Source: an uncultured Acidobacteriota bacterium
GTDB lineage: Bacteria; Acidobacteriota; Terriglobia; Acidiferrales; UBA7541
Assembly: GCA_963812565.1 (NCBI GenBank)
Contig: CAWEVR010000006.1
Location: 216,199-280,198, forward strand
Length of the DNA stretch: 64,000 bases
Direction of reading: 5' to 3'
A program made the translations under genes and the position numbers. This document shows, in pieces, positions 41,013 to 53,359 of this stretch. The notes beneath the pieces are model-generated. The model searched no databases. It had not been told where the DNA came from and was given only the letters and a program-made list of their open reading frames with translations. Each line of letters begins with the position of its first letter. Positions within the stretch are counted from its first letter, which is position 1.

Positions 41013-41309
41013 ATGGCGACGAGGCTTTATCAAGTGATTAAGCGGCCGATCATCACCGAAAAGGGACTCGGTGTGAAGGAAACGCAGCACACGGTTGTGT
41101 TCGAAGTCGCCGATGACGCCACGAAAACGGAAATCAAGGAAGCAGTGCAACTGATTTTCAAGGTGAAAGTGGACGCCGTGCGCACCGCGAAGTTTCACGG
41201 GAAGTTTCGCAGGCGAGGGCGCGCCGAGGGTTTCCGGCGCGACTGGAAAAAGGCCTACGTCAAGCTGTCAAAAGATTCGAAGATGATCGAGTATGCCGAG
41301 AATTTGTAA
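41013..41309 (+). CDS. rplW: 50S ribosomal protein L23
   Basis: LYQVIKRPIITEKG...VVFEVADDATKTEIKEAVQLIFKVKV. Confidence 0.95.
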   Translation: MATRLYQVIKRPIITEKGLGVKETQHTVVFEVADDATKTEIKEAVQLIFKVKVDAVRTAKFHGKFRRRGRAEGFRRDWKKAYVKLSKDSKMIEYAENL

Positions 41310-41375
41310 CTTTGACCTTGTAACTTTGGGAAAGGTCGAGGGGCGGCGGCGCTCTCTCGACGGCAAGAGGCAACC

Positions 41376-42197
41376 ATGGGACTGAAATCTTACAAACCGT
41401 ATACGCCTTCGCGGCGATTCATCACCATGCTCGACAAGAGCGAGGTGACCAAAGAAACTCCGGAGAAGTCGCTGACTGAATCGAAGAAGCGAACGGGCGG
41501 GCGCAACTCTCATGGTGAAGTGACCTCCTGGCATCGCGGCGGGGGGCACGCGCGAAAGTACCGCTCGATCGACTTCCGGCGCGACAAAATCGGAATCTCG
41601 GCGAAGGTTGCCGCCATCGAATACGATCCCAACCGGTCGTCGCGAATCGCCTTGCTCCATTATGCGGACGGCGAAAAGCGCTACATCCTGCAGCCCATCG
41701 GGCTCGAGGTGGGGATGACGGTGCAGAACGGCGAGGGTGCGGACATTCTTCCCGGCAACGCGCTGATGATTCGGCATATACCGCCCGGGACAATGGTGCA
41801 CAACCTGGAGCTTTTCCCCGGCAAGGGCGGGCAAGTGGTCCGCGCGGCGGGGGGAGCGGCACAGCTTTTGAGCAAGGAAGGCGATTTTGCCCTGATCAAG
41901 CTGCCCTCGGGCGAAGTTCGGAAGTTCAGCGTGGATTGCATGGCCACAGTCGGCCAGCTCGGAAATGTAGATCACGAAAATGTAACATACGGGAAGGCGG
42001 GCCGCACGCGCTGGCACGGGAAACGCCCCACGGTGCGCGGCGTGGCCATGAACCCGGTGGATCACCCTCACGGCGGCGGTGAAGGCCGCGTGAAGGGCAA
42101 CCACCCGCAAACACCCTGGGGTTTTCCGACTCTGGGCGCGAAGACGCGCAAGAAACGGAAGAGCTCCCGGATGATCGTGGAGCGGCGAAAGCCTTAA
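41376..42197 (+). CDS. rplB: 50S ribosomal protein L2
   Basis: [17 protein letters not shown]...[18 protein letters not shown]. Confidence 0.97.
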
Positions 42198-42221
42198 GTT
42201 TGGAATGGAGTAGAAGTAAAA

Positions 42222-42560
42222 ATGAACCCGGCGCGGCGGGGAATTGAGAGAAAAGACATGACAGCCACACGAACGTCTCGACGTGCACATCGGCGAGCGG
42301 CACGCAGGCGGAAAGCAGTTCCGCGGCGTGCAACGAAGCCGGTGGTAAAGACCGTCTCGAAGCTCGTGCCCCCACCCCAGGCAATGCTTCGGTTGTGCCG
42401 GGCCGGTTGGGCCGTGATTATCGAGAAGACACCGAACGCGCAGGGGACGCGCTTTGTTTGTCCCTTCTGCCCGCAATCGCACCGCGTTTCGGGCCCCGTC
42501 CGGGGATTCCGAAAGATGCGGCGCGCGCAGTGGGTGAAACTGCGCCGAGTAGAGGAATAG
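42222..42560 (+). CDS. Hypothetical very basic 112-aa protein inserted between rplB and rpsS
   Basis: The ORF fills the 371-nt rplB-rpsS gap. Its stop at 42558-42560 lies 8 nt before the rpsS ATG and is adjacent to the rpsS SD (GGAG). It has an Arg-rich N-terminus and a C-x(26)-CPFC-x3-H pattern. An alternative start is ATG 42258. Confidence 0.45.
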
Positions 42561-42568
42561 GGAGACCG

Positions 42569-42937
42569 ATGCCGCGCTCGCTCAAGAAGGGTCCGTTCAT
42601 CGACGACCACCTGAGAGAAAAGGTGGAAGGAATGAACGCCCGGAACGAAAAGAAGGTTCTGAAGACGTGGTCGCGCCGCTCGACGATTCTTCCCGAGATG
42701 GTGGGTCACACGATCGCGGTGCACAACGGCAGGAAATTCATCCCGGTGTACATCACCGAGCAGATGGTGGGACACAAACTCGGCGAATTCGCTCCCACGC
42801 GCACGTTCAAGGGCCACGCGGTAAAGGCGGCACTCGAAAGGGCGGCTGCGGCGGCAGGCGTCGCACCGGCTGCAGGGGGCGCAGCGGCTCCAGCGGCAGG
42901 CGGAGGCACCGGCGCGGCTCCGGCGCCCAAGGCATAA
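42569..42937 (+). CDS. rpsS: 30S ribosomal protein S19 with an Ala/Gly/Pro-rich C-terminal tail
   Basis: [12 protein letters not shown]...[22 protein letters not shown]..., then ~30 extra residues ([31 protein letters not shown]). Confidence 0.95.
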
Positions 42938-42940
42938 ACG

Positions 42941-43450
42941 ATGGCAACGGCAATCCCAGTCCAGAATCAGATCGAAGGAATCGCGAAAGCGCGGTACGTG
43001 CGCGTTTCGCCGCAGAAGGCAAGACTGGTGGTGGACTTGATCCGCGGCCAGCGCGCCGAAGACGCACTTCAAACGCTGCGCTTCACGAAAAAGCGCGTGG
43101 CGAAGGAAGTAGAAAAGACGCTGCGCAGCGCGATTGCCAACGCCGAGCGCAAAGCAGAGGATTCGGGGGAATCGCTGGACGTGGACGCGCTGTTCGTGAC
43201 CCGGTGTTTCGTGAACGAAGGGCCTCGCTGGAAGCGTTTGCGTCCTGCACCGATGGGCCGTGGCTTCCGGTATCAGAAGCGCACGAGCCACATCGTGGTC
43301 GAAGTCGCCGAGCATCACCGCGCCGCAGCCGACCGCGCGGCAGCGGCGGCGGCCGAAGCGCAAGCATCGAAGGGCGTGAAGGGCGCGGTGCGGAAGGCTC
43401 GCAAGGCGCTCGAGAAGCGCGCAAAGTCCGGACAGAAAAAGAAGAAGTAG
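42941..43450 (+). CDS. rplV: 50S ribosomal protein L22 with a ~55-aa Ala/Lys-rich C-terminal tail
   Basis: ARYVRVSPQKARLVVDLIRGQ...GPRWKRLRPAPMGRGFRYQKRTSHI, then AAADRAAAAAAEAQASKGVKGAVRKARKALEKRAKSGQKKKK. Confidence 0.95.
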   Translation: MATAIPVQNQIEGIAKARYVRVSPQKARLVVDLIRGQRAEDALQTLRFTKKRVAKEVEKTLRSAIANAERKAEDSGESLDVDALFVTRCFVNEGPRWKRLRPAPMGRGFRYQKRTSHIVVEVAEHHRAAADRAAAAAAEAQASKGVKGAVRKARKALEKRAKSGQKKKK

Positions 43451-43459
43451 GAGGCGAGT

Positions 43460-44119
43460 TTGGGTCAGAAAACGCATCCGTACGGATTTCGGCTGGGCTA
43501 CAACAAAGCCTGGAAGTCGCGCTGGTTCGCGAAGCGCGATTACGCCGACCTGCTTCATGAAGACGTGGCGCTGCGCGGCCAGTTAAAGGACCGGCTGCGG
43601 TCAGCGGGCGTCAGCTCGATTGACGTGGAGCGCGCCGCCAACAAACTCGTCGTGCGAATCTACACCGCCCGCCCGGGCATCATCATCGGCCGCAAGGGGT
43701 CGGAAATCGACAAGCTCAAGAACGAAGTGCAGAAGCGCACGAAGCGCGAGGTGCACATCGACATTCAGGAAGTCCATCGGCCGGAACTCGACGCGCAACT
43801 CGTGGCGGAATCGATTGCGCTGCAACTGGAAAAGCGCGTGGCCTTCCGCCGGGCGATGCGCAAGGCGGTGGATTCGGCGCTGCGGTTCGGGTGCAAGGGA
43901 ATCAAAGTGCGCGTCGCCGGGCGGCTGAACGGAGCCGAAATCGCGCGGAAGGAATGGTATTTGCAGGGACGGCTGCCGCTGCAGACGCTGCGCGCGGACA
44001 TCGATTACGGGACGGCCGAGGCGCACACAACGTACGGCGTGATTGGCGTGAAGTGCTGGGTTTATCAGGGCGAGAAGATACCGCAGCGCGGGAAGCCCGG
44101 GCCGGAAACGACAGCCTAG
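43460..44119 (+). CDS. rpsC: 30S ribosomal protein S3
   Basis: TTG start. [22 protein letters not shown]...[10 protein letters not shown]. Confidence 0.95.
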
Positions 44120-46363: not shown

Positions 46364-46549
46364 ATGGCGCGTACGAGCCAGTTCGCGAAGATGCGGAAAA
46401 AGCTGAAGTACAAGATTCGCAATCGCAACCGTTGCCGGATCTGCGGGCGCCCGCGCGGCTTTTTGCGCAAGTTCGAGATGTGCAGGATTTGTTTCCGCGG
46501 CCTCGCGCTCAAGGGGGAAATCCCCGGCGTGGTGAAGGCCAGCTGGTAG
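46364..46549 (+). CDS. rpsN: 30S ribosomal protein S14, type Z (zinc-binding, 61 aa)
   Basis: [22 protein letters not shown] carries two CxxC pairs. Ends in KASW. Confidence 0.95.
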
Positions 46550-52072: not shown

Positions 52073-52336
52073 ATGGGCAGAAGGCCTGAGCGGGAAAAAA
52101 AGAAGCCGGGCGAAGGTAGCGGGAAAGAAGACGCCATCGAAGTGATGGCGACGGTGGTTGAGCCGCTTCCGAATGCGATGTTTCGCGTTGAGCTGGAAAA
52201 CAAGCATCAGGTACTGGCTCATATCTCCGGAAAGATGCGGAAGAATTTCATTCGCATATTGCCCGGGGATCGCGTGGCGGTCGAGCTTTCGCCGTACGAC
52301 TTGACGCGCGGCCGGATTGTTTACCGGTACAAGTAG
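52073..52336 (+). CDS. infA: Translation initiation factor IF-1 with a ~15-aa basic N-terminal extension
   Basis: [69 protein letters not shown], preceded by [17 protein letters not shown]. Confidence 0.93.
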
Positions 52337-52375: not shown

Positions 52376-52489
52376 ATGAAGGTTCGGGCATCGGTAAAGA
52401 AAATTTGCATGAAGTGCAAGGTGGTTCATCGGCGCGGCGTGGTGCGCGTGATTTGCGTTAATCCAAAGCACCGCCAGCGCCAGGGTTAG
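52376..52489 (+). CDS. rpmJ: 50S ribosomal protein L36 (zinc-ribbon form, 37 aa), absent from the ORF track
   Basis: Manual translation gives [37 protein letters not shown], with a TAG stop at 52487-52489. Confidence 0.93.
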
Positions 52490-52912: not shown

Positions 52913-53359
52913 GTGGCCAAAGAACCTCAGGACGCCGCCGCTGCTCCGGCAGCACCGGCGAAAACTTCCAAACGCAAGAAGGAATTCCGGAAGAAGAAGG
53001 AAAAGCGCGTTGTGCCGCACGGCGTAGTGTGCATCACGGCCACATTCAACAACACGATGGTGACCTTGACCGATCCCGACGGCCGCGTGGTGAGCTGGGC
53101 TACGTCTGGTTCGGTCGGATTCAAGGGCTCTCGCAAGGGCACTCCATACGCTGCACAGCAGGCGGCGATGACTGCCGCGGGAGTGGCGCGCGATCAATAC
53201 GGGATGAAATCGGTCGAGGTGCGCGTTAAAGGGCCGGGCGCGGGACGAGAGTCCGCCGTTCGCGCGCTGGCTTCGTCGGGGCTGCACATCAACGCGATCA
53301 AAGATGTGACGCCCGTTCCGCACAATGGGTGCCGGCCGCCGAAGCGCCGGCGCGTGTAG
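52913..53359 (+). CDS. rpsK: 30S ribosomal protein S11 with an Ala/Lys-rich N-terminal extension
   Basis: GTG start with AAGGAGAAGG upstream. [18 protein letters not shown]...[14 protein letters not shown]...[18 protein letters not shown]. Confidence 0.95.

Follow-up and report, generated by a model that had tools for sequence, protein, structure and literature searches.

The window analysed here is a stretch of 64,000 nucleotides from an uncultured Acidobacteriota bacterium, with a GC content of 58.7%. Its plus strand carries a canonical tuf-S10-spc-alpha cluster of genes for ribosomal proteins (r-proteins). The spacing between the end of rplB (42197) and the start of rpsS (42569) amounts to 371 nt; between rpsJ and rpsN the thirteen remaining junctions range from −7 to 66 nt, and the other genes of the S10 operon are canonical in order and tight spacing. 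The gap is filled by a single plus-strand ORF of 112 amino acids (42222-42560), which we here call gene X. It stops 8 nt 5' of the rpsS ATG, at the Shine-Dalgarno sequence of rpsS. In all these coordinates, and in the shortness of the other junctions, our measurements agree with the initial annotation of this DNA. The features are compiled in Table 1.

Table 1. Features at the rplB-rpsS junction, in window coordinates
Feature	Position	Strand	Basis or remarks
rplB (ribosomal protein L2, 273 aa), upstream neighbour of X	41376..42197	+	ORF, translation, L2 motif present
X leader	42198..42257	+	GGAG 42207-42210, in-frame ATG 42222, block AACCCGGCGCGGCGGGGAAT 42225-42244, GAGAG 42246-42250
Gene X, conserved core CDS, 100 aa + stop	42258..42560	+	Invariant Met13, codon entropy, GAGAG Shine-Dalgarno
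Gene X, possible 5' extension to ATG 42222, giving 112 aa	42222..42560	+	ORF
X N-terminal Arg/Lys/Ala/Pro-rich tail, residues 13-53	42258..42380	+	Predicted disordered, length-variable
X C-terminal beta-rich domain, residues 54-112	42381..42557	+	AF2; putative Cys3His zinc-ribbon-like module
rpsS Shine-Dalgarno region (GAGGAA, TAG, GGAG)	42552..42564	+	Overlaps the 3' end of X (last two codons, stop)
rpsS (ribosomal protein S19, 122 aa), downstream neighbour of X	42569..42937	+	ORF, translation, synteny

The end of X, GTGGAGGAR-TAG, is conserved in nearly all loci compared, and rpsS starts 5-30 nt further on. A scan of the gap gave no match to a plus-strand promoter or terminator. The earlier suggestion that X is co-translated with the core r-proteins is thus upheld as far as gene anatomy goes, i.e., by the missing promoter or terminator match and by the Shine-Dalgarno sequence of rpsS being embedded in the end of X.

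Other genes of the cluster show peculiarities of their own. L4 (40194-41009), S19 and L22 (42941-43450) have long low-complexity C-terminal tails that are rich in Ala, Lys, Pro or Gly; that of S19 is Ala/Gly/Pro-rich, and L4 ends in ...AKKAPAEKAEHKAAPAKAHAAAKPAKKVAAKKKEKPKAKHKAKKD. The N-terminal tail of X resembles these tails in composition. Ribosomal protein L24 (45436-45792, 118 aa) bears a zinc-ribbon-like C-terminal extension of the type CxxC...CxxC, with VCPGCGK as its first CxxC segment, which to our knowledge is not a feature of the usual bacterial L24. The longest ORFs of IF1 (52073-52336) and S11 (52913-53359) open with basic extensions of ~20-30 aa; these could be real lineage-specific extensions or result from starts set too far upstream. 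On the minus strand, the ORFs 42194-43558 (454 aa) and 41268-42482 (404 aa) cross X, rpsS, rplV and rplB. Both were discounted as genes, because only the plus frame agrees with the codon-position pattern; they are shadow frames of the kind usual in GC-rich coding DNA.

Coding character, start codon and leader of X

The coding character of X was judged from a codon alignment that starts at Met13 (ATG 42258; residues are counted from ATG 42222) and comprises the window and 79 loci of GTDB species representatives; one locus with a garbled N-terminus (L072) was left out. The mean per-site entropy at codon positions 1, 2 and 3 is 0.41, 0.26 and 1.16 bits, respectively, i.e., from 42258 onward the third positions are 3-4 times more variable than the first and second ones. 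By the Nei-Gojobori method, dN/dS is 0.067 for residues 54-112 and 0.196 for residues 13-53; the corresponding values of the neighbours are 0.050 for L2, 0.050 for S19, 0.060 for L23 and 0.081 for L22. Purifying selection on the folded domain of X therefore equals in strength that on core r-proteins. The N-terminal tail differs in length between members exclusively by in-frame insertions rich in Ala, Lys and Pro. Nearly all of 80 genome loci and about 108 metagenome loci keep the frame open; the few that break it, e.g., L072 and L122, seem to suffer from errors of sequencing or assembly. This pattern of substitution identifies 42258-42560 as a real gene on which purifying selection acts strongly. 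The initial annotation had named the relatives as the place to check the ORF, with loss of the spacer, frameshifts or stops and non-coding substitutions as the outcomes speaking against it. What was found is retention of X, indels in frame and a dN/dS of 0.07-0.2; none of those objections holds. A codon-usage score for expression (LLR −0.017 for X, against a mean of 0.029 for r-proteins and −0.024 for the background, in bits per codon) is uninformative on X, because in this genome the score hardly tells r-protein genes from background genes.

Gene callers differ on the start of X. The initial annotation had placed it at 42222, but ATG 42258 most likely represents the conserved start. The methionine encoded there, Met13, is invariant. 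A large sister subfamily begins precisely at this residue with MRATRT..., and more than 60 of its members are so called. In both subfamilies a GAGAG Shine-Dalgarno sequence precedes ATG 42258 by 7-9 nt (7 nt in the window). Two loci, L078 and L079, do without the 12 codons upstream of Met13. Where these codons are present, they do not evolve like the rest of the gene: their dS is 0.28 as compared to about 1.0 elsewhere, dN/dS is 0.76, and the third positions are essentially invariant (ATG AAC CCG GCG CGG CGG GGA). In the most divergent locus, L083, a 1-nt indel falls inside the conserved block and an in-frame ATG is missing. The low dS, the invariant third positions and the indel together imply that conservation of the upstream segment acts on the nucleic acid and not on the protein. 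Wherever ATG 42222 occurs, it is in frame (11 or 12 codons ahead of Met13); a GGAG precedes it by 11 nt, and it may be used as a start. Taken together, the conservation pattern makes ATG 42258 probably the main start of X.

The leader itself deserves a closer look. In the window it contains a mini hairpin, formed by CCCG (42227-42230) and CGGG (42237-42240), within the invariant 20-nt block AACCCGGCGCGGCGGGGAAT. In leaders of the window type, RNAalifold finds only this invariant 4-bp hairpin, without covariation, and the leader folded alone yields a z of −0.33, which is not significant. In the MRATRT subfamily, a 7-bp stem-loop is seen at the homologous place; it ends directly 5' of the Shine-Dalgarno sequence of X. 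An alignment of 39 distinct MRATRT leaders (A5; from loci L082-L207) shows double compensatory changes in 7 of the 7 pairs predicted by RNAalifold. Of the hairpin cells, 87.3% are paired versus 66.0% in shuffled alignments (0 of 500 shuffles reach the observed value), and the covariation score is 0.60 versus 0.23 in the shuffles. If the partners are slid by 1-3 columns, pairing drops to 33-46% and the score to 0.09-0.16. The MRATRT leader is a structured RNA whose pairs are kept by compensatory changes beyond these controls, and the hairpin in the leader of the window subfamily is a 4-bp remnant of this stem-loop. Rfam yielded no gathering-level match in the whole window; around the gap there were chance-level ones only (E > 2). 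The length of the leader is highly variable among genomes, as is evident from one genome of the MRATRT subfamily (L084), in which the spacer between rplB and X (1181-1500) extends over 320 nt instead of the usual about 40-120 nt. This spacer is made up in part of short tandem-like GGGTCTTGTAG(T/C)GGCGG repeats.

Occurrence in genomes and metagenomes

Relatives of X are numerous. A word-indexed search of 5.8 billion proteins revealed 1170 clusters at 90% identity, and the best 120 of these 1170 all have an E value below 1e-40, are 100-127 aa long and are called "hypothetical protein" or are unnamed. When divergent members of X served as seeds, the search yielded 1597 clusters at 90% identity; cluster counts of small genes in long-read metagenomes are, of course, inflated because artefacts are among the representatives. 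Many such artefacts were encountered among the 50%-identity cluster representatives of X (P0122, P0123 and P0127-P0150) and in the loci L081 and L151. They comprise frameshifted versions of X, fusions of X with S19 in other frames (P0129, P0132, P0146, P0149) and chimeric contigs. When 1.84 billion cluster representatives were searched exhaustively with a HMMER profile, 30 matches came up, many of them frameshift chimeras from error-prone assemblies. All 30 belong to the X family, so that there is no detectable homologue elsewhere.

With each GTDB species represented by a single genome, 542 genomes were found to encode a relative of X. The 80 of them that were listed are metagenome-assembled genomes of Acidobacteriota, most of them under the label Ca. 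Acidiferrales, Acidoferrum or Terriglobia and a few under implausible ones. Genomes with X came, for example, from the SPRUCE, Stordalen "palsa" and Microflora Danica sites. The gene order rplW-rplB-X-rpsS-rplV is found in all 80. Also in seven loci of members picked from the search with divergent seeds, including the three most divergent ones (P0125, P0126 and P0266), X is situated between the genes of L2 and S19.

An independent sample was drawn from metagenomes by the L2 motif HGGGEG[RK]VKGNHP alone, and 120 loci were listed. The succession rplB-X-rpsS is seen in 100 of them. Seven further contigs end after rplB-X, another seven before the content of the junction becomes visible, and one (L151) is a chimera that switches to unrelated sequence past the N-terminus of X. 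The remaining five (L088, L111, L130, L178 and L200) lack X, and rpsS follows 2-4 nt after rplB. Their L2 contains the motif GRVKGNHP and is just 59-62% identical to the L2 of the window, which reveals these contigs as a distant lineage with a normal junction. In loci that carry X, L2 is 75-93% identical; wherever the junction is visible and L2 is at least 75% identical to that of the window, X follows rplB.

According to PMC13348298, Ca. Acidiferrales corresponds to the GTDB lineage UBA7541 and has a GC content of 58-60%. As far as these sequence surveys reach, X is specific to one acidobacterial clade and fixed between rplB and rpsS. The initial annotation had suspected a lineage-specific protein, and rightly so: outside this clade no homologue came up in the searches, and X always sits between rplB and rpsS.

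The X protein and the search for relatives

The 112-aa product has a pI of 12.0 and contains 31 Lys and Arg residues (27%) versus five Asp and Glu, which bears out the earlier description of a very basic protein with an Arg/Lys-rich N-terminus. Its basicity exceeds that of the neighbouring r-proteins and is similar to that of S14 and L36. The tail (residues 13-53) has 14 Lys and Arg and not a single Asp or Glu. In the AF2 model of full-length X, the N-terminal half appears disordered (pLDDT < 50) and the C-terminal part ordered. The domain alone, modelled with 123 sequences, is predicted to consist of five beta strands (pLDDT 80.8, pTM 0.61).

A direct count of the Cys/His set gives C59-x20-C80-x2-C83-x3-H87, which corrects the C-x26-CxxC-x3-H spacing given earlier. 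The four residues, encoded at 42396-98, 42459-61, 42468-70 and 42480-82, respectively, are invariant. In the model, strand 1 is followed by a turn that holds C59, strands 3 and 4 are connected by a turn with C80-P-F-C83, and H87 is part of strand 4. C59 stands alone in the first knuckle (C-R-A-G), and H87 is the sole candidate for a fourth ligand. The predicted topology would be that of a degenerate zinc ribbon, the first knuckle of which has lost one ligand. The invariance of the three cysteines and the histidine is not specific for metal binding, because most of the domain is invariant (22 columns in 123 sequences). The domain is a putative, probably zinc-binding, module.

Attempts to assign X to a family have yielded little. 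Pfam and NCBIfam contain no entry that matches X above cut-off. The sub-threshold matches in Pfam are DUF7560 (E = 0.039, 14.1 bits against a cut-off of 27) and Zn_ribbon_FGT1_1, the latter in 10 of 22 X members with a best E of 0.026. A sequence profile search of the PDB with X reached a best E of 0.24, which is not significant. Foldseek with the full-length and the domain model did not get beyond E values of 1.6-2.3 against the PDB and found nothing significant in BFVD; RPC10, a zinc-ribbon subunit of Pol III, came up with a non-significant E of 2.3. The first knuckle of eL43 (L37ae) shows a local match of 20 residues to X, again without significance (E = 0.29). All the sub-threshold zinc-ribbon matches cover the CPFC knuckle alone. 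An identity of X with eL43 was rejected, since a significant match is lacking and CPFC forms the first knuckle in eL43 and the second one in X. Equally rejected was a paralogy to S14, L36 or L24 of the window, for which hhalign probabilities stayed below 5%. In short, Pfam, NCBIfam, PDB, Foldseek and hhalign disclosed no similarity of X to a known r-protein by sequence or structure, and no zinc-ribbon family matches it significantly by profile or structure. The structure prediction and profile comparison proposed in the initial annotation gave a beta-rich C-terminal domain in the AF2 model, and no significant family match in Pfam, NCBIfam, PDB or Foldseek. A search of the accessible literature found no paper on gene X, and sources that name its product always call it "hypothetical protein".

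Possible functions and comparison with known systems

X shares several traits with r-proteins. It resides in an r-protein operon, is small and basic, and evolves at the rate of r-proteins. These features are typical of r-proteins; they are not sufficient to define one. Location in particular is weak evidence, because secY, adk, map, infA and rpoA are also found in such clusters. Composition and context suggest that X is a lineage-specific ribosome-bound protein that is made in step with the core r-proteins, and we consider the chances of this being correct as even. The scenario would be the following. The X gene would be part of the S10 operon transcript and, since its last codons are the ribosome-binding site of rpsS, X would be made in roughly the amounts of L2 and S19. 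In Acidobacteriota of the Ca. Acidiferrales type it would serve as a new ribosomal protein or as a factor associated with the ribosome in stoichiometric amounts. The folded putative zinc module would grip rRNA, and the basic tail would thread into it. Basic tails that thread into rRNA are common among small r-proteins. More speculatively, the hairpin 5' of the Shine-Dalgarno sequence of X might be an operator for feedback control of X translation; a role in processing or stability is equally conceivable. A more elaborate version of the ribosomal reading sees in X a previously unrecognised r-protein, specific to an order of uncultured Acidobacteria that abounds in soil. The protein would represent a new fold family combining a Cys3His zinc module with a basic tail, would have been born in the L2-S19 junction and would regulate its own synthesis through a hairpin in the leader that resembles its binding site on rRNA. 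In this full form the proposal appears unlikely.

Alternatively, X might be a small non-structural nucleic-acid-binding protein that uses the S10 operon only for growth-rate-coupled expression. It could, for instance, regulate its own gene or the operon, act as an RNA chaperone, help in ribosome assembly or hibernation, or be the zinc-ribbon partner of an enzyme that modifies RNA. We regard this as possible, if somewhat doubtful. The covarying hairpin at the ribosome-binding site of X would fit a regulator-operator pair, yet autoregulating r-proteins have such operators too, and the hairpin therefore does not discriminate between an r-protein and a regulator. The extreme basic charge would suit any binder of RNA or DNA, X is not similar to known r-proteins, and genes of other function (secY, adk, map and infA) are present in the very same cluster of the window. 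On the other hand, the X domain is under purifying selection as strong as that acting on core r-proteins, every locus shows X at the same strictly fixed position and translationally coupled to rpsS, and a low-copy regulator is not expected to be made in stoichiometry with L2 and S19.

It is very improbable that X is a diverged paralogue or zinc-dependent form of L31, L32, L33, L36, S14, S18 or eL43, or a selfish or mobile insertion. The weak local likeness to the first knuckle of eL43, the sub-threshold Pfam matches to DUF7560 and Zn_ribbon_FGT1_1 and RPC10 as best Foldseek match might be quoted in favour; all of them, however, are below significance and confined to the CPFC knuckle. Also, the comparison by hhalign with S14, L36 and L24 of the window was negative, tblastn and blastn detected no paralogue or DNA duplication of X within the window, and the zinc-type S14 and L36 are both already there. 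The identical position of X in every genome argues against mobility. Finally, the idea of a long non-coding regulatory spacer whose reading frame is open by chance, which the initial annotation had kept as an alternative, can practically be dismissed: it has a point in 42198-42257, a conserved RNA leader of which the 36 nt from 42222 to 42257 have the low dS, the high dN/dS and the invariant third positions described above, but it fails for 42258-42560 with its coding pattern of variable third positions and low dN/dS, with every length change in frame and the frame open in nearly all genome and metagenome loci, and Rfam did not match the gap either.

If X is indeed bound to the ribosome, it would be a new, non-homologous entry among the few lineage-specific r-proteins of bacteria. 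It would come from Ca. Acidiferrales/UBA7541, a group that is common in soils and peat and for which we know of no ribosome biochemistry. It would also be a clean case of a ribosome gaining a protein, in which de novo birth could be weighed against capture. Independently of its function, the X gene is a sharp marker of its clade.

The small lineage-specific r-proteins of bacteria include bTHX of Thermus, bS22 and bL37 of mycobacteria, and bS21. We know of none whose gene lies inside the S10 operon. Of these, bS22 is described in PMC10081302. Like them, X is very small, very basic, confined to a lineage, and missed or called "hypothetical" by annotation based on E. coli. Unlike X, they are peptides of 24-70 aa without a folded zinc module, and they share no sequence similarity with it. 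They have been placed on the ribosome by structure or mass spectrometry, whereas X is a candidate for such a place.

With the zinc-ribbon r-proteins bL31, bL32, bL33, bL36, uS14, eL43, eS27 and eL40, X has in common a beta-hairpin knuckle, Cys/His residues and basic extensions. As in X, three Cys and one His are found in bL36, and both uS14 (46364-46549) and bL36 (52376-52489) are encoded in the same gene cluster. There is, however, no significant match between X and these proteins in sequence, profile or fold, and the ligand order C-x20-CxxC-x3-H with a single Cys in the first knuckle is not matched by any of them.

Autogenous operators are well established in r-protein operons, e.g., the S8, S4 and L4 sites of E. 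coli. The X leader of the MRATRT subfamily resembles them in being a conserved, covarying stem-loop beside a ribosome-binding site. It differs in lying inside the S10 operon, ahead of a gene that other bacteria lack, and in having no match in Rfam; in the window, its own copy is reduced to the 4-bp hairpin.

The adjacency of L2 and S19 is conserved across Bacteria and Archaea and is among the most conserved gene junctions known. A gene that is fixed there throughout a lineage is therefore rare. Compared with the canonical S10 operon, rpsJ-rplC-rplD-rplW-rplB-rpsS-rplV-rpsC-..., the window adds one conserved gene and its leader at the rplB-rpsS junction. What is new here is that an S10 operon carries an additional, conserved orphan gene together with a structured leader inside the operon.
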